Below the pieces are notes generated by a model. It was given only the letters and a program-made list of their open reading frames with translations. It did no database searches and was not told where the DNA came from. This document shows positions 1 to 47,994 of a DNA stretch of 64,000 nt, piece after piece; position 1 is the first letter of the stretch; each line of letters opens with the position of its first letter. The position numbers and the translations under genes are program-made. The stretch is from Patescibacteria group bacterium. GTDB taxonomy: Bacteria > Patescibacteriota > Dojkabacteria > J137. Location of the stretch: NCBI GenBank assembly GCA_963169855.1, contig CAUJCN010000002.1:452885-516884 (forward strand). The letters are read 5' to 3'.

Positions 1-1
1 T

Positions 2-460
2 TCAGCTGTAGAAGAAGCAACTTTCTTAACAAGATTTGCTACAAAAGTTTATCTAATTCACAGAAGAGACGAATTAAGAGCTAGCAAAATCATGCAAGAA
101 AGATTGTTTGGGAATGAAAAAGTTGAAGTAATTTTAAATACTGAAATTAAAGAAGTTTTGGGAACAACAAAAGTTACAGCGTTGAAATTGTTTAACAATG
201 TAACTAACGAAGAAAGTGAATTACCAACAGACGGATTATTCTTAGCTATCGGGCACATTCCAAACACTGCATTTTTAGATGAACAATTGGAGTTAAATCC
301 AGAGAAATACCTAATTGCAGACCATGGAGTGTACACCGGAATCGACGGAGTATTTGTAGCAGGAGATGTAGAAGATCATATTTATCGACAAGCTATAACT
401 GCGGCAGGAGCTGGATGTAAAGCAGCCATTACAGCAGAAAGATGGTTACAAAGTTTATAA
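2..460 (+). CDS. trxB: Thioredoxin-disulfide reductase, C-terminal part (gene starts upstream of the window)
   Basis: The open frame runs from the window edge. The C-terminus ...GIDGVFVAGDVEDHIYRQAITAAGAGCKAAITAERWL matches the conserved TrxB NADPH-domain and C-terminal signature. Confidence 0.8.
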   Translation, partial: SAVEEATFLTRFATKVYLIHRRDELRASKIMQERLFGNEKVEVILNTEIKEVLGTTKVTALKLFNNVTNEESELPTDGLFLAIGHIPNTAFLDEQLELNPEKYLIADHGVYTGIDGVFVAGDVEDHIYRQAITAAGAGCKAAITAERWLQSL

Positions 461-463
461 ATA

Positions 464-2611
464 ATGCAGAACGCACGATTAGGAAAAACAAATGAAAGTA
501 ACGTTAATTTAATTCCAAAAGTTAAAAAACGAAGCTGGCAAAAAACTCGAAAAATCTTTGGTGTTTTTGCATTTTTTTTTGGAATCGTAATTGTTGCAAT
601 CGGACTGTTATTTACTCATTTCGTTGTGATGCCTGGATTTAAAGTCCTAGGATATTTAGAAAATATTCAAGATAATGCTTCTCTACTCCTACAGGATTTA
701 AGTGTAAAGAATATTGCGAATATAGATACATACTTAACCAATGTCCAGAATGAATTAACGAAAATTGATGCTGAGATTTCAAAGTTTGAATTTTTAAAAA
801 CAATTGATCAGACAAAAGGTTATTACGAGAATTTTAAAACTGGAAGTCGAATATTAGACAGAATCAATACACTGATTGAGTATTCTATTCCAAAGCTAAA
901 GAATATTTTAGTTGCAACTGGATTCTCTACAGACAGAAATTCAGCTTCAGTATTGGGAACTTTAGAAGAAGCTGGCGAAGATGAGGAAAGTTCGATCTCA
1001 CTAATCTTAAAGGAATTCCCACAGTACTTAGAATTATATAGAGATATTGAACCTCAAATTATCGGAATTTTTGAAGAAATCGCCAAGATTGATACTAACC
1101 ATATTCCAGTGTTACCAGGTGTAGACATTGCTGGAAAACTTGGATCAGTAAATGATTTAGGCAAAGAATTCCCTGAGCTCTCAGATAAGACTGTTAGATT
1201 TATTGAAAAAGTTCCACAGCTTCTTGGTTCAAAAGACCCATCTACTTTCTTAGTTGTTATGCAGAATGAAGCAGAAATGAGATCTTCTGGGGGAATTTTA
1301 ACGGCTTATGGAGACATCACTTTAAATAATGGGGAGATCTCAGACGAAATTAAATTAGAAGACACTACTAATCTTCAGCTTTATCTATGGCAACTTGGTG
1401 TAATGATGCCTCATTACAATATTCATGGACAATTGTATTTAATGAACAGCGGTTGTGGAGCTTCGGAAGCAAGAGCCCAGGATGTAGCAATGTATCCTGA
1501 CTTATACGAAAGTATGATGCTTTTCAAAGATTACTATGAAATTGCAAATTTTTATAATCCTGGCGATTTCCCTTCATACGATAATATCGTTATATTAAAT
1601 TTCAACTTTGCTAAGAATTTATTGGGTCTGGTCCAACCTATTATTGTGGAAGGTTTCGGAGAAGTAACTGCTGACACTCTCTTTAGTTTTATTAAAGCAG
1701 AGACTGACAATGAAGATAAGTATCAGGCATACGATAAAGATAGAAAAGAAATTATTGGACAAATTTCTGACGCAGTAAAAGAAAAACTATTTAACTTGCC
1801 TTACTCGGATATTCCAAAGATTGTTGATTTAATTGTCAAATCATTCCAAGCTAGGGATTTAGGATTGGAATCTACAAATCCAGATATGCAAGCATACTTT
1901 GATGAATACGGAATGAGCGGAAGATATGCTAAAGATGTAAAAGGTGATTACTTTAGTTTAGGAGAAGCCCAGAATTGTTCATTAAAACTAAATCAGTGGG
2001 TTAGAAACGATGTTAATCATTATGTAGGAATAAAAGAAGATGGAACTGTTTACAGAGAAGTGAAAGTAAAATGGAGGCAACCTCAAATCTACAATGGAAT
2101 TTTCTACGGACAATATGACTCTACTTTACGATTCGCATATAGAGCTTGGGTTAGATTTATTATGCCAGTTGATTCTTATGAAATTAATTCAGATGGTTTT
2201 AGCAGATCAGGATACTTATACTACTATCCTAAGTCATACTATGATGAAACTTTAAACAAAGAAGTTAGCGATAATATTGTTTGGTTCGACCACAGAAGAT
2301 TTGATGAATCCGATCCAATCGAAAAAGAAGAAATGAATGTTAGTTATGAGTTACCTTCAACAATCAATTATATTAATGATGGAGAATATACATTACTGTT
2401 ACAGAAACACCCAGGAAAGTCTTCTTGGGAAACTCACTATGTAACAGTTCGGGATATAGATGGACAAACATACACGATTGAAACAACGCTTGATAGAGAT
2501 AAGATCGTCAGGTTCAAAGATGGTGTAATTTCTGTAGATAATTACGACCAAAGCCTGGATTGGTTAAAGACCGATATTATCGACAGACTCCCCTTCGATA
2601 AACTTCAATAG
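464..2611 (+). CDS. Large membrane-anchored hypothetical protein (715 aa), with an N-terminal TM helix and a long extracytoplasmic region
   Basis: A long uninterrupted ORF starts 3 nt after the trxB stop. Hydrophobic segment FGVFAFFFGIVIVAIGLLFTHFVV near the N-terminus. No recognisable catalytic motif. Confidence 0.5.
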   Translation: MQNARLGKTNESNVNLIPKVKKRSWQKTRKIFGVFAFFFGIVIVAIGLLFTHFVVMPGFKVLGYLENIQDNASLLLQDLSVKNIANIDTYLTNVQNELTKIDAEISKFEFLKTIDQTKGYYENFKTGSRILDRINTLIEYSIPKLKNILVATGFSTDRNSASVLGTLEEAGEDEESSISLILKEFPQYLELYRDIEPQIIGIFEEIAKIDTNHIPVLPGVDIAGKLGSVNDLGKEFPELSDKTVRFIEKVPQLLGSKDPSTFLVVMQNEAEMRSSGGILTAYGDITLNNGEISDEIKLEDTTNLQLYLWQLGVMMPHYNIHGQLYLMNSGCGASEARAQDVAMYPDLYESMMLFKDYYEIANFYNPGDFPSYDNIVILNFNFAKNLLGLVQPIIVEGFGEVTADTLFSFIKAETDNEDKYQAYDKDRKEIIGQISDAVKEKLFNLPYSDIPKIVDLIVKSFQARDLGLESTNPDMQAYFDEYGMSGRYAKDVKGDYFSLGEAQNCSLKLNQWVRNDVNHYVGIKEDGTVYREVKVKWRQPQIYNGIFYGQYDSTLRFAYRAWVRFIMPVDSYEINSDGFSRSGYLYYYPKSYYDETLNKEVSDNIVWFDHRRFDESDPIEKEEMNVSYELPSTINYINDGEYTLLLQKHPGKSSWETHYVTVRDIDGQTYTIETTLDRDKIVRFKDGVISVDNYDQSLDWLKTDIIDRLPFDKLQ

Positions 2612-2656
2612 TCAGTCTGTATTTACAAACCTATAAGAATCCACTATCATAGTTCT

Positions 2657-2902
2657 ATGGATCAAATTACCAGACAATATTTAATATTCGCAGCAACAAT
2701 TGGAGGAATTATTTCTTTTATTTTCAACTTCTTTATTATTGAATTAGTAAGAAACACGCCACTATACGGGTTTCCCATTGGATTGGGAGAAACAGTGGGT
2801 ATTATAAACCTGCTCTTCAAATTGACTAACACTATCGTAATCGGGGCTGCTTTAACTGTTCCTGTTTACTACGTTCTTATTTGGTTAGAAAGACGAAGAT
2901 AG
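2657..2902 (+). CDS. Small membrane protein (81 aa, about 2 TM helices), hypothetical
   Basis: The ORF has two long hydrophobic stretches and a basic C-terminal tail (ERRR). Confidence 0.35.
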   Translation: MDQITRQYLIFAATIGGIISFIFNFFIIELVRNTPLYGFPIGLGETVGIINLLFKLTNTIVIGAALTVPVYYVLIWLERRR

Positions 2903-3568
2903 TTACGATTCTTCAACAGTGAATTTTGGGGTTTTAAAGTGACCAACAACGCTACCCTGTGCATTCCAACATACAATATCATCTTTATCTATAGTTAGAT
3001 CCATCCCACCTCTCATAGTATTGAAGACTGGAAGAAAATTACTATTGAAACCTATCTGAGATAATTCATCTTTAAGTCCCCTTAATTGATTCATTCTGTA
3101 ATTTATATACTCCATCTCTGTTTTGAATCCCCCAAAGTTACTCCCCTGAAAAATTAAATAAGCTTCCTTTCCCAGTTCTTTAAACGTTTTAACATATCTT
3201 GCAAACTTCCTACCTTGCATGGATTTATGTTTTGGTTCCATACCCCAATCAGGAAAGAAATGATGAAAAACAGTAGAATTTACCCCAGGAATGCAAATCA
3301 AAAAACACATTCTATGGCCTACCGACATGAAGCTATAATTATCTCTGCCTAAGAAAGGCACGCTTGCTTCCGTAAGCTTCTTCATAAAGCAATCTTGATC
3401 TTCAATGTGACTTCGAATTGATATAGCCAAATCTTCTTTATGAATTGGTTCGTATGACAAGGGGACTAAAGAACTATGCCTTTCGTACACATCATCAGGT
3501 AGCCATATAGGTTGTTTTGCGTACCCTCCTAAATCTGGAAATCCGCCATTAAGCTCAATAGAGTTCAT
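2903..3568 (-). CDS. Hypothetical protein (221 aa)
   Basis: Intact ORF convergent with the upstream small gene. No confident family assignment from motifs. Confidence 0.4.
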   Translation of the reverse strand: MNSIELNGGFPDLGGYAKQPIWLPDDVYERHSSLVPLSYEPIHKEDLAISIRSHIEDQDCFMKKLTEASVPFLGRDNYSFMSVGHRMCFLICIPGVNSTVFHHFFPDWGMEPKHKSMQGRKFARYVKTFKELGKEAYLIFQGSNFGGFKTEMEYINYRMNQLRGLKDELSQIGFNSNFLPVFNTMRGGMDLTIDKDDIVCWNAQGSVVGHFKTPKFTVEES

Positions 3569-3594
3569 GGACGGATTATATCTTAGAAAGTCTT

Positions 3595-5259
3595 TTACAC
3601 AAAGCTGATCAAGGTTATGATCATTGGCTCTCTTTCAGTTTCCTCGAAAACTAAGTCAGAAACATCTGCTGTAATTACTTCTCTAACTTCAGCAACTTCT
3701 TTGTAATTCGCCTTCATTGAGTTATAGATTTCTTTAGTTTTATCAACAATGTTTTTAATTAATTCCTGAGAATTCTTAACATAAACAAATCCTCTTGAAA
3801 TTACAAACGGATCTCTAACTAATTCCTTTTCTTTGTTAACAATAATATCAATCACTACGACTCCGTAACTTGCTAGCTGTTCTCTTTCTTTTAGAACCAC
3901 AGACCCAACATCGCCTACTCCAGAACCAGAAACTAGTAATGGTTCGCAAGGGAATTGTTTTATAATCTTATATCCTTGATTTGAGTTTCCTTCAACGATT
4001 GATCCTTTTTTAGTAATCAAGATATTGTTTTCTGCAACTCCTGTAGATTTTGCTGTTTCTCCGTGAGCTCTAAGGAAATATTGATATCCGTGAACTGGCA
4101 TAAAGAATTTTGGTCTTACAAGGTTCAGCATGATTTTTTGGTCTTCTTGATATCCGTGTCCTGATGTGTAAAGGTCTAGATCTTCTGTTTGTCTAACATT
4201 TGCTCCTTTAGACATGATTTGATCAATCATATTTTGAACAGTCCTATCGTTTCCAGCAATAGTTTTTGCAGAAATAATAACTGTATCTCCTTTCTTAACA
4301 GTTACTCCTTTGTAGTCAGTGTAAGCCATTTTTGATAAAGCAGCTTCTTCTTCTCCTTGAGCTCCAGTTGTTAAGATCAAAAGTTTATTTGGGGGAATAT
4401 TATTTACTTGAGCAATATTCACAATCAAGTCTTTTGGCATCTTAAGATATTCAATTTTTTCTGCAATTTCTAAGGTTTTTCTCATGGAGAATCCTGCGAT
4501 AGCAACTTTTCTATTGTATTTCTCTGCGATTGTAATCAATTGATAAAGTCTACCTACAAGACCTGCAAATGAAGCTACAATTACTCTACCTTTTGCTCTT
4601 TCGATAACATCTTCCAGTCCTTTGGCAACTTCGCTCTCAGAAACTGGATGTCCTTTTTTCAAAGAGTTTGTTGAGTCAGAAAGAAGGATATCAATTCCCT
4701 CATCTCCGATTTTCGCAATTCTTCCATAGTCAGCTACTGGTTCGTTAATTGGAGAGTTATCAAATTTAAAGTCTCCTGTGTGAACTGCTTTAGCTGTTGG
4801 AGTTTTAATATAAACACCTACTGCCTGAGGAATACTATGATTAACTCTAAAGAACTCAACTTCAAAATGAGTGAATTTTAGTTTAGAATTCTCATCGATA
4901 ACCTTTAGCTTGTCCTTCATCTTATCCATCAAACCGGCTTCCTCTAACTTAAGTTTAATAAGTTCTAATGTGAATCTAGTTCCATAAATTACTGGGAAAC
5001 CCATGTCCTCTAAATGAAAATGAATTGCACCAATATGGTCCAAGTGTCCGTGAGTAATCACCAGAGCTTTAATCTGTTTTTGTTTTTTCTTTAAATATGA
5101 AATATCTGGAATGATGTAATCAATTCCGTAGTAGTCGTATTCAGAGAAACCTAATCCAACGTCAACAACTAAAATCTCGTCTTTATATTCATATACAGTG
5201 CAGTTTATTCCAACCTCTTCTACACCACCTAGAGGTATAATTTTCAAATTCTCGTTCAT
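3595..5259 (-). CDS. rnj: Ribonuclease J (metallo-beta-lactamase / beta-CASP family RNase)
   Basis: 554 aa. The N-terminal MBL motif VITHGHLDHIGA, the beta-CASP region, the overall length and the motif order are typical of RNase J. Confidence 0.85.
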   Translation of the reverse strand: MNENLKIIPLGGVEEVGINCTVYEYKDEILVVDVGLGFSEYDYYGIDYIIPDISYLKKKQKQIKALVITHGHLDHIGAIHFHLEDMGFPVIYGTRFTLELIKLKLEEAGLMDKMKDKLKVIDENSKLKFTHFEVEFFRVNHSIPQAVGVYIKTPTAKAVHTGDFKFDNSPINEPVADYGRIAKIGDEGIDILLSDSTNSLKKGHPVSESEVAKGLEDVIERAKGRVIVASFAGLVGRLYQLITIAEKYNRKVAIAGFSMRKTLEIAEKIEYLKMPKDLIVNIAQVNNIPPNKLLILTTGAQGEEEAALSKMAYTDYKGVTVKKGDTVIISAKTIAGNDRTVQNMIDQIMSKGANVRQTEDLDLYTSGHGYQEDQKIMLNLVRPKFFMPVHGYQYFLRAHGETAKSTGVAENNILITKKGSIVEGNSNQGYKIIKQFPCEPLLVSGSGVGDVGSVVLKEREQLASYGVVVIDIIVNKEKELVRDPFVISRGFVYVKNSQELIKNIVDKTKEIYNSMKANYKEVAEVREVITADVSDLVFEETEREPMIITLISFV

Positions 5260-12235: not shown

Positions 12236-12946
12236 CTATTTACTTACACCTGAGCTAATAACTATCACCCATTCTCCTTTCAAGGTTTTGGTTTTGATTT
12301 GATGCGCTATTTCTTTAATATTCCCAGTTATTACATTCTCGAACTTTTTTGTTAAATCGTTGGAGAGTGAAACCATCGCGTCAGGATACTCATCGCTAAT
12401 TATTTCCACTGTTTTTGCAACTCGAAAAGGAGATTCGTAAATAACTGTAGTAATTCCTGCTTGCATGGAGTTTTCGATTTTTTTCAGAATCTTTCCTCGT
12501 TCTCTTGGGAGGAATCCAAGGAAAGTGAACTTATCGACTGGAAATCCAGAGTAAATGAGTGCTGGTTCAATCGCAGTTGGACCAGGAATAACTTCAATCT
12601 GAACTTCCTTCTCTCTTAGTTCTTTTAAAAGTAAATATCCTGGATCTGAAATAAGAGGCATTCCCGCATCTGTTACGAAAGCTATGTCATTTTGTTCAAG
12701 AACGGAGATAATTTGAGATATAATTCTATCGTGGTTTTGTTCTCTGTAAGAAACAACCTTCTGAGATTCACCAATGCTATCTGTAATGAAGTCTGGGAAT
12801 CTTTCTTTCAATAATGATCTAAGCTTAATATAGTTACGCGTATCCTCACAGACAACTACAGAAGCACGAACGAGCTCATTAAGAGCTCGTATCGAAATGT
12901 CTTCTAAATTCCCAATTGGTGTTCCTACAACCTTTAGTTTAAACAT
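12236..12946 (-). CDS. rsmI: 16S rRNA (cytidine1402-2'-O)-methyltransferase, tetrapyrrole-methylase fold
   Basis: The N-terminus LKVVGTPIGNLEDISIRALNEL...VVVCEDTRN is the RsmI signature. Length 236 aa. Confidence 0.8.
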   Translation of the reverse strand: MFKLKVVGTPIGNLEDISIRALNELVRASVVVCEDTRNYIKLRSLLKERFPDFITDSIGESQKVVSYREQNHDRIISQIISVLEQNDIAFVTDAGMPLISDPGYLLLKELREKEVQIEVIPGPTAIEPALIYSGFPVDKFTFLGFLPRERGKILKKIENSMQAGITTVIYESPFRVAKTVEIISDEYPDAMVSLSNDLTKKFENVITGNIKEIAHQIKTKTLKGEWVIVISSGVSK

Positions 12947-13113
12947 TAGTTCATTCTAAAATCTCTGAAATCAATTGGTTGAGTATTCTGGAGAGTTTCT
13001 GAGATTCTTAAACTAAACACAGATGTTAAAACGACTAAGCAAAGTATGGAAAGAATTTGACAAATAAAGATGCCTAAAATTGTAGCTAAAAGCATTTTTA
13101 AGAATTGTGGCAT
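12946..13113 (-). CDS. Small hydrophobic protein (55 aa, single predicted TM helix), paralog of the next gene, translationally coupled to rsmI through a TAATG overlap
   Basis: Hand translation: MPQFLKMLLATILGIFICQILSILCLVVLTSVFSLRISETLQNTQPIDFRDFRMN. It falls below the 60-aa cutoff of the ORF track. Its stop codon shares one nucleotide with the rsmI ATG. Confidence 0.45.
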   Translation of the reverse strand: MPQFLKMLLATILGIFICQILSILCLVVLTSVFSLRISETLQNTQPIDFRDFRMN

Positions 13114-13131
13114 AAGGTTACTAAATCTAAA

Positions 13132-13293
13132 TTATCTGTAAATAGAGTCTGTTGGATAGTTCACATTGCTTAACTGATTAAGAATCACTCCACCTGTCAC
13201 TGCAGAGAAAATAAATAGACAAGCTACTGATGCGATTACACAAATGAAATAACCTAACATCACAGCTAATACCATTTTGAAAAACTGTCCCAT
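13132..13293 (-). CDS. Small hydrophobic protein (53 aa, single predicted TM helix), tandem paralog of 12946-13113
   Basis: Hand translation: MGQFFKMVLAVMLGYFICVIASVACLFIFSAVTGGVILNQLSNVNYPTDSIYR. It shares the M-x-Q-F-[FL]-K-M-[VL]-L-A...G-x-F-I-C N-terminus with its neighbour. Confidence 0.45.
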   Translation of the reverse strand: MGQFFKMVLAVMLGYFICVIASVACLFIFSAVTGGVILNQLSNVNYPTDSIYR

Positions 13294-13341
13294 ATTTTAT
13301 ATTTTAACAAGTAATAAATAATTATATAAAGCTTGTTTATA

Positions 13342-13629
13342 TTAGTAAACTCCAATCTCATCTATACTTGGAAATATAGTTCTAAGCAAACCTATAAACT
13401 TATCTGCTAATTTGCCCGAATAGCTTCCATAACCTGATCCTTCTGAAGTTCTACATAATTCATCATTGTATTTGTTCACTACTTCCATAAACTTCTCCCC
13501 AACTTCGTTGAACTCTTTTCTATATTTATCGGGCTCTTCAGTAAATTTAGTATGAATGTCTGTAAATTGAGTCCAAAGTTCACCGTTTTCTTCTACAAGT
13601 TTTTTTAATGTTGTTTGATATTTGGTCAT
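13342..13629 (-). CDS. Hypothetical protein (95 aa), coupled to the upstream gene through a 1-nt overlap
   Basis: Intact ORF. Its start overlaps the stop of 13629-14480. Confidence 0.4.
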   Translation of the reverse strand: MTKYQTTLKKLVEENGELWTQFTDIHTKFTEEPDKYRKEFNEVGEKFMEVVNKYNDELCRTSEGSGYGSYSGKLADKFIGLLRTIFPSIDEIGVY

Positions 13630-14480
13630 TAGTAATTATGAGTAATAGTTCTATGATGCGGCTTTAAACCTTGCAAAGTTTTAGAAGCCTTCCATATTAT
13701 ACTATCTAAAACGATAGGATTAATACCATGAATATAGGCAAGCTCTTGAATCGCTACTATTGAGGCACCTCTTATTTCAATCTCCTGAGGGGAACCTTCT
13801 TCTAGGTATAGGCCTGCATCAATAATTTGCTGAAGTTCTTCGGAATATTCTAAGATCCCTATACTATTCAGAAATTGTGGAATTCGATAGTCTGCTAATC
13901 CTGTTAGCGACTTATATACATTGAATGCCGTAATTTTATCTCTAAAAGAATAAATTAAAGCTTGAATTCTTTTGTAAAAATATACTTTCCCGAAACCTGG
14001 AGAGACTCTCTCATCTCGATACTGCGGCATTTTTTTTGTCATATCTTCAATTAAACACTCAATATCGCTAAAAGAGTTTAAGTAATTTTCGATATTAAAT
14101 TGAATAGATTCTAGAAAAGTTATAGTTTCTTGGATAAAGTGAAAACGTTCTTCAGTTAAATACAATGGAGAAAAAACTTCTTTAAATTCTTGTAAGGATA
14201 GAGATTTAAAACCGTCAAATTTTATCTTATTGTACAAAGCTAAAAGTCTTTCTTTTACAACACCCGTGTTTAATGATTGTGAACTATCAAAATTCCAAAA
14301 GCAGAAGTTAATAGCAGAAAAAAGCAATCTAATATCATCGTCCAGCATTGCTTCCGGGGTAACCTCCTCCGAACCAAACTTCTCCCAGTACTCCGTAAAT
14401 GCGTGATAATTCCTCCTGTTGATGGCAACAGAATGAGATTTTTCAGTGATTTTGTATGCAGATTCTAATACCCGATCCAC
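13629..14480 (-). CDS. Hypothetical protein (283 aa), possibly a DUF2419 / Qng1-like queuosine-salvage hydrolase
   Basis: The length, the all-alpha character and an ADYRIPQ-type motif are reminiscent of DUF2419, but this assignment is from memory and is unverified. Confidence 0.3.
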   Translation of the reverse strand: MDRVLESAYKITEKSHSVAINRRNYHAFTEYWEKFGSEEVTPEAMLDDDIRLLFSAINFCFWNFDSSQSLNTGVVKERLLALYNKIKFDGFKSLSLQEFKEVFSPLYLTEERFHFIQETITFLESIQFNIENYLNSFSDIECLIEDMTKKMPQYRDERVSPGFGKVYFYKRIQALIYSFRDKITAFNVYKSLTGLADYRIPQFLNSIGILEYSEELQQIIDAGLYLEEGSPQEIEIRGASIVAIQELAYIHGINPIVLDSIIWKASKTLQGLKPHHRTITHNY

Positions 14481-24683: not shown

Positions 24684-25352
24684 TTACTGCTTTTTAAGCC
24701 AATCCGTTGGATCTATGTTATTCACAGTTTGTCCTGATTCAACTTTAATTGTTAATACTTTACCAGAAAGTTGATCTTTATTGCAATTAGCCTCGCCTTT
24801 TTCTTTAACGCACTTAACGAATTCTGTGTACCGTGCAGTATATTCGAGGTTCAAAGAATTGTTTGAAGTAACAATATTTGACATCAAATTATAGTTTCCA
24901 CTTGGTAAAACCAAAGTAAAATCTGACTCGTAAGCTGAAACAGTTACGCAGTATTTTGTACTAGAATTGTTTGTACTTTGAGCACAAACTAATTGATATT
25001 GGCTAAACGATGAATCCCCAACCAATAATGGGAAAATTGAACCCTTGATAGTTCCGTATCCATTCTTAATCTGCCTTTGGAGTTCCGTATCTAATTCAGC
25101 ATTCTCAGCTTTAAGTCTCTCAACTTCGGAATTAAGCTCTCTAAAACTACCTTGAAGGTTATCGATAGTTACCTGACTTTCTTCCTGATTACTATTTAAA
25201 AGCACAGTCGTATCTCTGTATGCACTATTAATATCATTCAATTCTTTAGTTTTTGTATAAAGAAGAACTGCTAAAACAATACTCACTATCACAAAAAATA
25301 AATACAAACCAATTAATAGAATTTTTCTCAGAAGATGAAGAAATTTTTTCAT
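24684..25352 (-). CDS. Membrane-anchored coiled-coil hypothetical protein (222 aa)
   Basis: The N-terminal TM segment ILLIGLYLFFVIVSIVLAVLL is followed by a coiled-coil segment (EVERLKAENAELDTELQRQ). The gene overlaps the upstream gene by 4 nt (ATGA). Confidence 0.45.
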   Translation of the reverse strand: MKKFLHLLRKILLIGLYLFFVIVSIVLAVLLYTKTKELNDINSAYRDTTVLLNSNQEESQVTIDNLQGSFRELNSEVERLKAENAELDTELQRQIKNGYGTIKGSIFPLLVGDSSFSQYQLVCAQSTNNSSTKYCVTVSAYESDFTLVLPSGNYNLMSNIVTSNNSLNLEYTARYTEFVKCVKEKGEANCNKDQLSGKVLTIKVESGQTVNNIDPTDWLKKQ

Positions 25353-33362: not shown

Positions 33363-34280
33363 ATGTTAAAAAATTTAGTAATAGCTGTTGTAGTTATTGC
33401 GTTGGTAGCAGGAGCTTTTTCGATTATTAACGGGCAAAAAAAAGATTCTTTTTTCTTAATCCGAGAAGAAGGCGATATCTTTTTTAAAAATACTGAGACG
33501 GAGTCTTACCTAACACTTTCTCAAGACGAGATTTCTCTTCAAAATGGTAGTTATATTAAAACAGGAGAATTCTCTTCGGCACATGTTATTCTTCCAGATA
33601 ATACTGTAATTTCTTTAGACGAGAAGACTGAATTGCAAATCAATCTTGCAGATGAAGGAATCGAGATCTTCCAGTTTCTTGGAAAAACATGGAATAGGGT
33701 AGAAACACTTACAAACGGAAAAAAATTCGAAATTAAATCTGGCGACGCCGTTGCTGCAGTTAGAGGAACAATTTTTCACTTTGAAGTAAATGCCGATGGG
33801 ACAAAAGGAATAAAAGTTGTCGAGCACTCAGTTGCGTTAAGCAATACTGCACAGGAGATTCTTACTAATGAAGAGGAGAGTGGAGTTGTTAGTGTTGAGG
33901 GCAAAATTACCAAAGGGACTATTCCAGAATCATTCTTGAAATCAAGATGGTATATCAGAAATAAAGTTTTGGATCAAATTAAACGAACAGGATTAGATAA
34001 TATTTTTTTGAAAGACAAGATTAAAAAAGAATTTATTAGGGATGAGCTAGTTCAGACTAGATTCAATATCAAAGATACTAGTGTTCAATCTTCTTTATTA
34101 TCTATTGTTATTGATACAAGTGACTCGACTGTTTGTTCGAAAACTGCAGAAATCCCTCCTTATGTGAAATACTCTAAATTTGGTGAATTATATGAAGCTT
34201 TCCTAGGAAGTTGTGCTGATAACAGACTCGAAGAAGTTGAAATCAAGGAATTGGCAAGAATCTACGCCACAATAAAATGA
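33363..34280 (+). CDS. Membrane-anchored protein with a possible FecR-like domain
   Basis: N-terminal TM VIAVVVIALVAGAFSII. The beta-rich segment ...GDAVAAVRGTIFHFEVN resembles FecR-domain strands. The gene overlaps the downstream cyclase gene by 4 nt. Confidence 0.35.
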   Translation: MLKNLVIAVVVIALVAGAFSIINGQKKDSFFLIREEGDIFFKNTETESYLTLSQDEISLQNGSYIKTGEFSSAHVILPDNTVISLDEKTELQINLADEGIEIFQFLGKTWNRVETLTNGKKFEIKSGDAVAAVRGTIFHFEVNADGTKGIKVVEHSVALSNTAQEILTNEEESGVVSVEGKITKGTIPESFLKSRWYIRNKVLDQIKRTGLDNIFLKDKIKKEFIRDELVQTRFNIKDTSVQSSLLSIVIDTSDSTVCSKTAEIPPYVKYSKFGELYEAFLGSCADNRLEEVEIKELARIYATIK

Positions 34281-36175
34281 GAAGAATAGGGATCTACCTA
34301 CTCATCTGCATCTTTGTAATTCCAATCGTTCTATCAGAACCGATAAAAAATTTAAATTTTCTTTTTACTGATAGACTTCATAATTCTGAACCACGCTCAG
34401 AAATTGTTGTCGTTGGGATTGATGATAAGTCACTCCAAAATATAGGTGCTTGGCCATGGAGTAGAGGTGTATTTGCAGATTTTTTGGGTAATCTGATGGA
34501 AGTGAATCCATCTGTAGTTGGGTTCGATGTGATTTTTGGAGAGAGCAGAGAAGGTGATTTAGAACTTCAAAATATTATAGATGTGAATCCAAATAAAATT
34601 GTTTTTGGAAGCAAAGTCATTGATAACAACGAAGTCATAAAACCGGTTTTTAATGTCGCTTCCGGATACGTCAATTTTGTCCAAGACGAGGACGGCAAGA
34701 TTCGAAGAAATACTCCTTTTACTGTGATCGACTCGGTTTGTGAAACCAGTTTCTCATTCAAAATTTTTCTGAGGTATCTTTTTGTACAAAATTTTGTGTG
34801 CGACGAATTAAAATTGAGGAACAAATTTTATCCTTCCGTAAACAATCGTGTTTCTCCAGAATTTACAAAAGAGCAGTTTAAAACAATAAGTTTTGTTGAT
34901 GTTCTAAACAAAAATTTTAAATCTGAGGATTTTAAAAACAAGATAGTTTTGGTGGGTTCCACAGCCATCGATCTTCGTTCAAGTTTAAACGATAATTTTA
35001 CCGATATTTTTGGAAATGCAGTTCCAGGAGTTGCGATTCATGCCAATATTATTAATGGATTTTTAAACGATGATTTACTTAAAGAAGTGGACTACAGTTA
35101 TTCAATTTTGATTCCTCTTTTAATTTCGGTATTTCTATTTGCTATATTTACTAAGTCGGCAAACAAGACTTTGAATCTTTGGTTATTTATAGTTTTGTTC
35201 GTGATCTTGAATCTGATTCTATTGGTTGCAATTGAATTCAATTTCTTACCTGATTTCGTAACTCCTAATGTTTACTTAATCCTTGCATTCGCTTCTTCAG
35301 TTATTCTTAAGTTTTTTGTTCAAAAGAAAGAAAAAGAGTTTGTTGAATTGGCATTCGAACAGTATATGAACAAGAAATTATTGAATGAATTAAAGAAGTC
35401 CCCTCATAAACTGAATCTTGGAGGAGAGACTAAAGAGATCAGCGTTCTATTTAGTGATATTCGAGGATTTACATCTATTTCTGAAAAATTGGATGCTCAT
35501 GGGTTGATTACCTTCATAAACAGTTACTTGGAACACATGAGCAAAATAATTTTGGAGAACGAAGGAACTATCGATAAATATATTGGAGATGCAATTATGG
35601 CTATTTGGAATGCACCTATTGATGTTGTAAATCATGCAGAATTTTCTGTTTTAGCAGCTTTAGCAATGCAAGAAAGCACAGAACAATTTTCAAGTAAGTT
35701 TCCAAATCTACCTAGAATTAAAATTGGAATCGGAATAAATACTGGGAATGTAGTTGTTGGAAACCTGGGTGGGTCGATGCGGTTTGACTACACTGTTATT
35801 GGTGACGATGTTAATTTAGCTTCGAGAGTAGAAAGTCTTACTAAAAAGTATAATTGTACGATTCTGGTGACTGAGAATACTAAAAAGTTGGTTTTGAATG
35901 AAAATATTAAATTTAGGCAAGTAGACGAAGTAATCGTAAAGGGCAGAAGTACCCCGGTCAAAGTTTACGAACCTTACATTGAAGAACGCCCATATTTCAC
36001 TATTTATGAAAAAGCATTTGTATTCTACCAAAATGGAGATTTTCAAGAATCGATTAATGCTTTAAAATCCATCTTAGAAGATCCTGTATCTCAAACTCTT
36101 TTGGAGAGATGCGAAAACCTTATTTTAAATCCACCAAAAGATTGGAATGGATGTTGGGAATGGGACGAAAAATAA
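34277..36175 (+). CDS. CHASE2-sensor membrane-bound class III adenylate/guanylate cyclase
   Basis: An N-terminal TM and periplasmic CHASE2-like region is followed by 3 TM helices. The cyclase catalytic domain then has VLFSDIRGFTSISE...YIGDAIMAIW...GINTGNVVVGNLG...YTVIGDDVNLASRVES. Confidence 0.75.
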   Translation: MRRIGIYLLICIFVIPIVLSEPIKNLNFLFTDRLHNSEPRSEIVVVGIDDKSLQNIGAWPWSRGVFADFLGNLMEVNPSVVGFDVIFGESREGDLELQNIIDVNPNKIVFGSKVIDNNEVIKPVFNVASGYVNFVQDEDGKIRRNTPFTVIDSVCETSFSFKIFLRYLFVQNFVCDELKLRNKFYPSVNNRVSPEFTKEQFKTISFVDVLNKNFKSEDFKNKIVLVGSTAIDLRSSLNDNFTDIFGNAVPGVAIHANIINGFLNDDLLKEVDYSYSILIPLLISVFLFAIFTKSANKTLNLWLFIVLFVILNLILLVAIEFNFLPDFVTPNVYLILAFASSVILKFFVQKKEKEFVELAFEQYMNKKLLNELKKSPHKLNLGGETKEISVLFSDIRGFTSISEKLDAHGLITFINSYLEHMSKIILENEGTIDKYIGDAIMAIWNAPIDVVNHAEFSVLAALAMQESTEQFSSKFPNLPRIKIGIGINTGNVVVGNLGGSMRFDYTVIGDDVNLASRVESLTKKYNCTILVTENTKKLVLNENIKFRQVDEVIVKGRSTPVKVYEPYIEERPYFTIYEKAFVFYQNGDFQESINALKSILEDPVSQTLLERCENLILNPPKDWNGCWEWDEK

Positions 36176-44472: not shown

Positions 44473-45018
44473 TTATTTGAGTTTATTGTAGATTTCGAAG
44501 GATAGAGGAGGAACGTTCTCTGGTAGATTTTCCGAAGTGACTAATTCCCAAATCTGTTCACCATCTGAATCCTTCATATCTACAATGTCGAAACTTACAT
44601 CCCCTTCGAAATCTTGGTAAATTCTAGTAACGTAGAATTGATCAATCAAGTTATGCCTCAGTGCTAAATTGTAAATTTCTGCACCTCCTATAAACCATGA
44701 TTCTTCTCCCCATTTATGTTTCATTTCTTCTAAAAGGTGTTTAAGCTGATCTATAGATGAAACTACGAATGTGTTTCTAAAACCTTTCTCTTGAACATAA
44801 TTTTCTAACTTTTCGGGATTTCTTGTCATTACTATATTTGGTCTTCCCGGTAACTCTCTGCCCATTCCGAATAGAGTACTGCTTCCCATAATTACTGGAT
44901 GCCCCATTGTTAAATCCCTAAACTTCTTCATGTCTGCATCAATTCTTGGCCAAGGGAGCTTTCCTTGATTTCCAATTACACCGTTTTGGGCAACAGCCAT
45001 TATTGCATTGAACTTCAT
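44473..45018 (-). CDS. folA: Dihydrofolate reductase
   Basis: AIMAVAQNGVIGNQGKLPW...DLTMGHPVIMGSSTLFGMGRELPGRPNIVMTRN matches the DHFR N-terminal fold. Length 181 aa. Confidence 0.8.
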   Translation of the reverse strand: MKFNAIMAVAQNGVIGNQGKLPWPRIDADMKKFRDLTMGHPVIMGSSTLFGMGRELPGRPNIVMTRNPEKLENYVQEKGFRNTFVVSSIDQLKHLLEEMKHKWGEESWFIGGAEIYNLALRHNLIDQFYVTRIYQDFEGDVSFDIVDMKDSDGEQIWELVTSENLPENVPPLSFEIYNKLK

Positions 45019-47328: not shown

Positions 47329-47994
47329 ATGAAACTTTACGATGAACTAGCAACCGACTTCTCAAATTCTAGAGCTTACCCATGGAAAGGTTGGGGAAAA
47401 GTAAAAGAATATGTAGAGTCAAACTTTACAGAATCTGTGTCCGTTTTGGATTTGGGTTGTGGTAATGGCAGATTTCTTCAGTTTTTAATCGATCAGAAAA
47501 TCAATTTCGCTGATTTTGTTGGCATAGATAGTTCAGACGAATTATTAAAAATTGCAAAAGAAAGATATTCAGACAATGCCGAATTCATTTTCGCGGATTT
47601 AGAAACTGACTGGGAAACAAAGATAATAGAAGAGATACAGGATCCAGTCCGATATGATGTGATAGTTCTTTTTGGAGTAATGCATCACATATCTTCTTTC
47701 GAAAAGAGAGTAGAGATTTTAAGAAAAGCTAGGTCGAAATTAAAGGAAAACGGGGTGATAATGGTAACTTACTGGCAATTTGGAAGTTATCCAAGATTTA
47801 CAGATAAAGCAGAAAATCTTGGCAATAACGACTACATGCTTTCATTTAATGGGGAGAGTGGAGCAAGATTTTGTCATTTTACAGATGAACGCGAGGCAGA
47901 AAAGATTGAAGAGGATTCTAACTGTGAATTAATTTCTTCGTACTATTCTGATGGAGGAGATGAGAAATTGAACTTATACAGATTCTACAAATGA
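47329..47994 (+). CDS. Class I SAM-dependent methyltransferase
   Basis: Motif I VLDLGCGNGRFLQF, the post-I acidic residue and motif II (DVIVLFGVMHHI) are present. Confidence 0.6.
   Translation: MKLYDELATDFSNSRAYPWKGWGKVKEYVESNFTESVSVLDLGCGNGRFLQFLIDQKINFADFVGIDSSDELLKIAKERYSDNAEFIFADLETDWETKIIEEIQDPVRYDVIVLFGVMHHISSFEKRVEILRKARSKLKENGVIMVTYWQFGSYPRFTDKAENLGNNDYMLSFNGESGARFCHFTDEREAEKIEEDSNCELISSYYSDGGDEKLNLYRFYK

Follow-up and report, generated by a model that had tools for sequence, protein, structure and literature searches.

The 64,000-nucleotide stretch analyzed here (hereafter the window; contig CAUJCN010000002.1, positions 452,885 to 516,884, from a member of the Dojkabacteria) carries two adjacent small genes on its minus strand, pepA and pepB, located directly upstream of rsmI, which codes for the 16S rRNA (cytidine1402-2'-O)-methyltransferase. 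As judged from their conservation and from the selection acting on them, pepA and pepB are almost certainly real translated genes. We propose that they code for paralogous single-helix integral membrane micro-proteins that reside in the membrane and are co-expressed with rsmI, a statement to which, taken as a whole, we assign a probability of about 0.55.

Coding status and paralogy of pepA and pepB

Gene pepA extends from 13293 to 13132 (minus strand; ATG at 13293, TAA stop at 13134..13132) and codes for a peptide of 53 amino acids, MGQFFKMVLAVMLGYFICVIASVACLFIFSAVTGGVILNQLSNVNYPTDSIYR. Gene pepB extends from 13113 to 12946 (minus strand; ATG at 13113, TAA stop at 12948..12946) and codes for a peptide of 55 amino acids, MPQFLKMLLATILGIFICQILSILCLVVLTSVFSLRISETLQNTQPIDFRDFRMN. 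Both had been proposed in a previous examination of the letters of the window (the sequence-only reading), whose coordinates and translations were exact. They had also been described as missed by the track of open reading frames (ORFs), which is true only in a relative sense: the public gene calls of NCBI and Logan already hold both peptides as unnamed proteins (P0001 and P0002), and it is on two short contigs that pepB was skipped. In these contigs (L004, 523-705, and L005, 1156-1338), whose DNA is the same as that of the window, the public caller took pepA and left out pepB, ORFs of this kind being marginal for automatic annotation.

All contigs containing the exact peptides were 100% identical at the DNA level, and contigs L006-L009 were identical to each other, so that population variation was uninformative. 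Relatives were therefore sought through RsmI homologs and the contigs that carry them; a first genome scan with RsmI alone had given nothing. Four other lineages were found to carry pep ORFs at the equivalent position, with RsmI proteins 73-79% identical to that of the window. L006 (RsmI 77% identical) contains pepA at 3647..3811 and pepB at 3834..4001, and L016 (79%), which was found by a genome scan using the peptide profile, contains pepA at 2350..2514 and pepB at 2537..2704. In L010 (73%) a single pep ORF is present at 3828..4001, which is a pepB ortholog. Contig L011 (76%) begins inside the gene and retains, at 1..63, the last 20 codons of pepB, ending in TIDDFRFN. The duplication is thus present in three of the four lineages in which it can be seen.

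Comparison of these sequences revealed purifying selection on both genes. Between L006 and L016, pepA showed nine synonymous and no non-synonymous differences (Nei-Gojobori method), a split with a chance of ~1e-6 if ~21% of sites are synonymous and changes are random, and pepB gave a ratio of non-synonymous to synonymous change (dN/dS) of 0.09 by the same method. Between the window and its relatives, where synonymous sites are near saturation, dN/dS was 0.28-0.43 overall (0.28 for pepA against L006, and 0.3-0.4 for pepB), the comparison genes rsmI and p95, an orphan gene upstream of pepA, giving 0.04-0.11. Residues M1 and F4 were invariant, with synonymous TTT/TTC variation, and ATG was the start codon in both genes. 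The C-terminal ending of pepB was kept despite codon changes (GAT/GAC, AGA/AGG, and AAC/AAT), and since it persists through synonymous changes it is selected at the protein level. Conservation in relatives and dN/dS had been set beforehand by the sequence-only reading as the check that could overturn a coding role; the frames are conserved and dN/dS ranges from 0.09 to 0.43, and this answers the coding question for both pepA and pepB.

In view of these counts, it is scarcely credible that the two frames are open by chance, or are remnants in decay, and not functional genes. From the base composition, a frame of 53 or more codons stays open with a chance of ~2%. In favor of chance or decay, the ORFs are short, lack a Shine-Dalgarno site, belong to no database family, and one of them, pepB, was left uncalled on short contigs. 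However, this explanation is effectively refuted by the selection counts, by the preservation of the frames in five lineages in spite of the near saturation of synonymous sites, and by the relationship between the two peptides.

This relationship was evident from BLASTP, which aligned PepA and PepB over 49 residues at 45% identity (E 4e-12). Since a shared composition can be enough to align hydrophobic segments, the local alignment score was compared with those of shuffles in which the N-terminal, hydrophobic, and tail segments of PepB were permuted separately. The observed score was 93, versus 29.8 +/- 6.0 in the shuffles, none of 5000 of which reached it (z 10.5). The two peptides are, on their sequences, true paralogs, as the sequence-only reading had stated. 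No further paralogs were found in the window or in the fetched loci. In the window pepA and pepB lie in the same frame, one stop codon plus six codons apart, and expression as a read-through fusion was considered and rejected: in L006 and L016 the two genes are offset by 187 nucleotides, so the common frame in the window is a coincidence.

A conserved hydrophobic helix with a polar tail

All six full-length sequences start with a six-residue N-terminus containing K6, after which charged residues are absent from position 7 up to positions 35-51 (7-48 in PepA). The Kyte-Doolittle maxima over 19 residues were 2.5-2.8 (2.64 in PepA), and an AlphaFold2 model consisted of one helix at residues 2-43 (mean predicted local distance difference test score 81.5) with the last ten residues disordered. 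Each peptide ends in a polar tail of 15-20 residues with a net charge of 0 to -1. These data bear out the description of single-helix hydrophobic peptides with a polar tail given in the sequence-only reading. With a size below ~60 amino acids and a predicted bilayer-spanning segment, both peptides would correspond to small single-pass membrane proteins.

Conservation is highest in the N-terminal half. The first 18 residues conform to M-x-x-F-Φ-K-M-Φ-Φ-A-x-M-Φ-G-Φ-F-Φ-C (Φ, hydrophobic), and another cysteine follows at a distance of seven residues. M1, F4, K6, M7, A10, F16, C18, and C25 are invariant in the six sequences, and M12 and G14 are nearly so. The tails are type-specific: that of PepA contains the motif GG-Φ-I-Φ-N-Q-L-S-N and is 60% identical between the window and L006, and that of PepB carries the C-terminal motif D-(F/Y/M)-R-x-N, also readable as D-Φ-R-Φ-N, right at the stop codon. 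The cysteines do not lie in a lipobox ([LVI][ASTVI][GAS]C), since C18 is preceded by F-I or F-L and C25 by SVA, SVL, SIL, MIA, LLA, or TFV, so that at most one of the six sequences comes near it at C25. An N-terminal double-glycine leader is also absent from the peptides. The possibility that one face of the helix, or a heptad interface, is conserved was considered as well and found unsupported.

The hydrophobic stretch, of at least 27 residues, exceeds the length of a cleaved signal peptide and would rather act as a signal anchor. An uncleaved anchor is favored because the stretch is of anchor length, shows the strongest conservation within the peptide, and contains the two invariant cysteines; conservation to this degree would not be expected of a plain signal peptide. 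The peptides would therefore stay in the membrane, where they may work singly or jointly, or may serve a larger membrane protein as its accessory subunits or modulators. By analogy, it can be guessed that they form homo- or hetero-oligomers or modulate such a protein, this being the usual role of small membrane proteins. In this respect they resemble AcrZ, KdpF, CydX, and MgtS of E. coli and SpoVM of B. subtilis, which are also encoded by tiny operon genes, are 30-60 amino acids long, combine a single hydrophobic helix with a short polar terminus, and are often unannotated and lineage-restricted. They show no sequence similarity to any of these, Pfam and NCBIfam giving no match, and differ from them in the two invariant intramembrane cysteines, in occurring as a tandem paralog pair, and in the absence of a partner gene from the operon. 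A likeness to AcrZ and to the N-terminal anchors of SppA was considered but had no backing from searches and was dropped.

Alternatively, the same architecture could be that of secreted precursors, in which residues 1 to ~35 would constitute a Gram-positive-type Sec signal peptide and a C-terminal peptide of 18-22 residues would be released as a Phr/PapR-type pheromone-like signal, a bacteriocin, or a host-directed effector of an episymbiotic cell belonging to the Candidate Phyla Radiation (CPR). We consider this rather unlikely. It is consistent with the layout of the peptides (a short N-region with lysine, a hydrophobic core, and a small-x-small motif near residues 33-35 in all six sequences), with the type-specific conserved motifs of the polar tails, including the extreme C-terminus of PepB, and with the rapid divergence of PepB. 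Some leaderless and two-peptide bacteriocins are moreover typically encoded by tandem paralogous small genes: the class IIb two-peptide and the class IId leaderless paired bacteriocins are likewise encoded by two adjacent small genes, and the enterocin L50A/B peptides are paralogous, leaderless, and start with MG-. However, the pep peptides show no sequence similarity to these bacteriocins, and are strongly hydrophobic and nearly uncharged instead of cationic-amphipathic. The length of the hydrophobic run and the continuous helix of the model also argue against secretion, as do the high conservation of the supposed signal part with its two cysteines and the lack of a double-glycine leader context. 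In addition, no exporter (C39/ATP-binding cassette type), peptidase, immunity-like gene, enzyme for ribosomally synthesized and post-translationally modified peptides, or peptide receptor (tetratricopeptide repeat, RNPP, or two-component type) was found within ~20 kb of the pep genes.

A related possibility, to which we give little credence, is a CPR-specific system of exported or surface-exposed peptides, in which the conserved hydrophobic N-terminal half with its cysteines would be a targeting or processing module, the variable tails, and most of all the rapidly evolving tail of PepB with its D-Φ-R-Φ-N ending, would be released or displayed and act on neighbor or host cells, and output would be tied to the expression of rsmI, a gene of ribosome biogenesis, through the gene overlap described below.

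The overlap with rsmI and candidate expression signals of the pep genes

The stop codon of pepB and the start codon of rsmI overlap in a TAATG (12944..12948, minus strand), in which base 12946, an A, closes the pepB TAA and opens the rsmI ATG. This overlap, which the sequence-only reading had noted, was kept in the five lineages (window, L006, L016, L010, and L011). The genes are separated by 48 nucleotides between p95 and pepA, 18 between pepA and pepB, and -1 between pepB and rsmI. The pepA/pepB spacer (13114..13131, minus strand; TTTAGATTTAGTAACCTT) is AT-rich and lacks a Shine-Dalgarno sequence. The sequence-only reading had pointed to AAGGTTACT as a possible ribosome binding site before 13293, and this was not sustained: these are plus-strand letters of positions 13114-13122, beside the pepB start, and represent the reverse complement of the last nine bases of the spacer. 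The coding strand there reads AGTAACCTT, with no ribosome binding site. The lack of such sites is normal in this organism, since motifs of the Shine-Dalgarno type are nearly absent from the genome, long proxy genes in the window having a Shine-Dalgarno-like tetramer upstream in just 3 of 52 cases. Many starts among these 52 genes have instead a TATAAT box 5-15 nucleotides upstream, which suggests that leaderless or very short-leader mRNAs are widespread.

Stop/start overlaps are frequent in the window, as in the TAATG between the Q-salvage gene and p95 (13627-13631) and in the four-nucleotide overlaps at 25349-25352, 34277-34280, 45015-45018, and 47991-47994, and for this reason that of pepB and rsmI is typical of the genome. 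Termination-reinitiation at the TAATG is a plausible route for rsmI translation. Ribosomes that end pepB would restart on rsmI in a genome nearly devoid of Shine-Dalgarno sites, and the link between the pep genes and rsmI may then reflect the expression economy of a compact genome and not a common function.

A candidate promoter, TTTACT-17-TATAAT, was located at 13321..13349 (minus strand), with 10 of 12 matches to the consensus and its end 28 nucleotides 5' of the pepA ATG. The p95-pepA spacer is much longer in L006 and L016 (270-355 nucleotides, versus 48 in the window) and cannot be aligned except for its last ~60 nucleotides, which include a TATAAT box. The box and the conserved ~60 nucleotides suggest that pepA heads its own transcription unit, in which pepA and pepB would be expressed first, followed by rsmI and perhaps comM. 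The spacers of the two relatives (L006 3291-3646 and L016 2077-2349) are rich in short tandem repeats, namely GCTCAAA present 7.9 times in L016 and units of 20 and 41 nucleotides in L006. A GC-rich piece of ~120 nucleotides in the L006 spacer (3478-3600) was examined as a possible RNA element and discarded, with no Rfam match and a fold z of -0.96.

The conserved overlap could also mean that pepB, and perhaps pepA, is a regulatory upstream ORF whose translation, membrane targeting, or nascent-chain motif sets the translation of rsmI, either in the manner of MifM, SecM, and VemP or as a simple coupling leader. Like the pep genes, the ORFs of the MifM-yidC2, SecM-secA, and VemP-secDF2 systems are small and lie directly 5' of the linked gene, and MifM also has an N-terminal membrane helix. 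The persistence of the overlap in five lineages, the conserved D-Φ-R-Φ-N motif at the pepB stop codon, the possible dependence of downstream genes on upstream translation in a genome without Shine-Dalgarno sites, and the position of rsmI, which is always tightly behind another gene in Dojkabacteria (20 nucleotides or less behind a same-strand upstream gene in every locus examined), are all in line with such a role. We nevertheless hold it to be improbable. The entire peptide, and not just an arrest motif, is under amino acid selection, and this extends to pepA, a gene that does not border rsmI. As RsmI methylates rRNA in the cytoplasm and is not a membrane-biogenesis factor, there is no evident logic in monitoring membrane insertion. 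A one-nucleotide overlap takes the place of the hairpin opened by stalling, and no RNA structure masking the start was detected (z +1.15 for the sense RNA). Furthermore, relatives without pep genes have rsmI behind p95 or behind a glycosyltransferase gene, and overlaps of one and four nucleotides are common in the window.

The RNA analyses also bear on the proposal, contained in the sequence-only reading, of type I toxin-like peptides. On such a reading the tandem pair would consist of toxin-like or holin-like peptides that damage the membrane and are restrained either by an antisense RNA or by strict control of translation. The peptides share with Hok, Ldr, TisB, Fst, and TxpA their small size (53-55 amino acids), the single transmembrane helix with a short polar tail, the tandem copies seen in some loci, and a narrow spread. 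However, neither the 396-nucleotide sense RNA nor its antisense was more stably folded than its shuffles (z +1.15 and +1.59, respectively), antisense promoter and terminator signals were no more numerous than expected by chance, and no Rfam match was obtained. The genes are preceded by an AT-rich leader of at most 48 nucleotides and are embedded in a housekeeping unit, overlapping rsmI in all five lineages, so they are not a stand-alone transcription unit. Since the pepB stop overlaps the rsmI start, translation of rsmI by coupling would require synthesis of the toxin. The genes are also stable at one chromosomal site under purifying selection in 0.8-Mb genomes, have no toxin match in PADLOC or NCBIfam, and have no plasmid or phage copies. 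A role as toxins is thus very unlikely.

Of the functions suggested in the sequence-only reading, those of type I toxin and of bacteriocin or pheromone therefore receive no support, there being neither antisense or structured RNA nor transporter, immunity, processing, or receptor genes within ~20 kb. That of a small membrane protein stands as the best reading, reached by inference. Several observations weigh against resident membrane micro-proteins. The function proposed for them is read from architecture. The single copy in L010 indicates that the pepA/pepB pair is not obligatory. PepB evolves faster (27-36% identity between the window and its relatives, versus 58% for PepA), as would also fit a loosely constrained or diversifying peptide. 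Conservation showed no helical periodicity (Fourier analysis of alignment columns, permutation p ~0.49), so that a single conserved helix-helix interface lacks statistical support. The permissive small-x-small site (S-G-G, L-G-A, or V-F-S) makes cleavage and release of the tail possible. Finally, in this AT-rich DNA promoter-like matches were not enriched over shuffles (9 found versus 12.9 expected). Membrane residence, topology, oligomerization or partner binding, the promoter, and translational coupling are all features that we infer from sequence. With these points taken into account, we still consider the toxin, bacteriocin or pheromone, and regulatory-leader explanations less likely than resident membrane proteins.

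Range of the family and gene context

The pep family was very narrowly distributed. When 1.84 billion representatives were scanned with HMMER in filter-only mode, the two peptides of the window and that of L010 were the only members recovered, and a six-sequence profile run through a word index of 5.8 billion clusters gave the same result. Two extra matches with E values of ~1e-3 to 1e-4 were spurious, corresponding to 20 residues of long repetitive proteins. Nothing was found in two metagenome scans, in a viral scan, or by tblastn against plasmids and phages, and no match above noise was obtained in Pfam, NCBIfam, PADLOC, PHROGs, or PDB sequences. Sub-threshold matches to PspC-TM and DUF6256 (E 0.014-0.018) involved a single family member only and were rejected. 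As far as these searches reach, pep is a previously undescribed orphan family whose members all come from a single narrow clade of Candidatus Dojkabacteria.

More distant Dojkabacteria, with RsmI proteins 52-55% identical to that of the window (L012, L013, and L014), do not carry pep genes. The slot 5' of rsmI is occupied in L013 by an abutting p95 homolog and in L012 by a glycosyltransferase gene. In L014, a YflT-like, glycine-rich membrane protein of 178 amino acids, unrelated to pep, is encoded at 866-1402 between the p95 homolog and rsmI. In the window, p95 (13342..13629, minus strand) codes for an orphan protein of 95 amino acids and lies 5' of pepA, the pep genes being located between it and rsmI. 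Homologs of p95 were present 5' of rsmI in L006, L016, L010, L013 (2724-2996), and L014 (501-773), so that p95 and rsmI look like a conserved gene pair. Since the distant Dojkabacteria lack pep genes, these would represent a recent insertion into that pair, duplicated in most cases.

The p95 product had no match in Pfam, NCBIfam, or PDB. Its homologs have 90-95 amino acids, with invariant C59, E63, and G68 and a C-terminus D-E-x-G, and are found 5' of rsmI across Dojkabacteria down to an RsmI identity of 52%. Nucleotide identity between L006 and L016 over this region (L006 2990-4720) was a mosaic, being 100% over 3111-3230 inside p95, 90-98% in pepA and the 60 nucleotides upstream of it, 65-78% in pepB, and 72-95% in rsmI. 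This pattern may stem from recombination between the lineages or from constraint that is not uniform.

The rsmI gene itself (12236..12946, minus strand) codes for a protein of 236 amino acids with a Pfam TP_methylase domain (E 3.9e-34). Its homologs carry the name RsmI in their source databases, and the best named ones belong to Candidatus Dojkabacteria (WS6, CPR/Patescibacteria). The order of genes on the minus strand is Q-salvage, p95, pepA, pepB, rsmI, and comM, and dnaA, ribA, rpsG, rpsL, rpoBC, and a gene for a TrmB-type regulator lie nearby. No gene for a membrane-protein partner was evident at the locus, the operon neighbors being p95, rsmI, and comM. The window has a G+C content of 32-38%, and neither tRNA genes nor Rfam families at the gathering threshold were detected over its 64 kb (1-64000). 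Elsewhere in it, genes for a FecR-domain protein and a CHASE2-adenylate/guanylate cyclase overlap by four nucleotides (33363-36175, plus strand), a noteworthy sensor-cyclase pair for a CPR genome of 0.8 Mb. The longest contig containing both peptides measures 817,811 bp, the genomes of this group being reduced to 0.8 Mb.

The pep genes constitute an ordinary orphan family, whose occurrence in few lineages limits its reach; it would not surprise a specialist and changes no current view. Small membrane proteins are, nevertheless, under-annotated everywhere, and almost nothing is known of them in CPR/Patescibacteria, a poorly understood group in which the majority of lineage-specific genes offer nothing to take hold of. 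The pep locus also shows how stop/start overlaps may link successive genes where Shine-Dalgarno sequences are nearly lacking from the genome. The pep genes are fixed at one site and overlap rsmI in every lineage that has them, and since genomes of 0.8 Mb keep few dispensable genes, this duplicated pair under selection is a clean, sharply delimited candidate for experiment.

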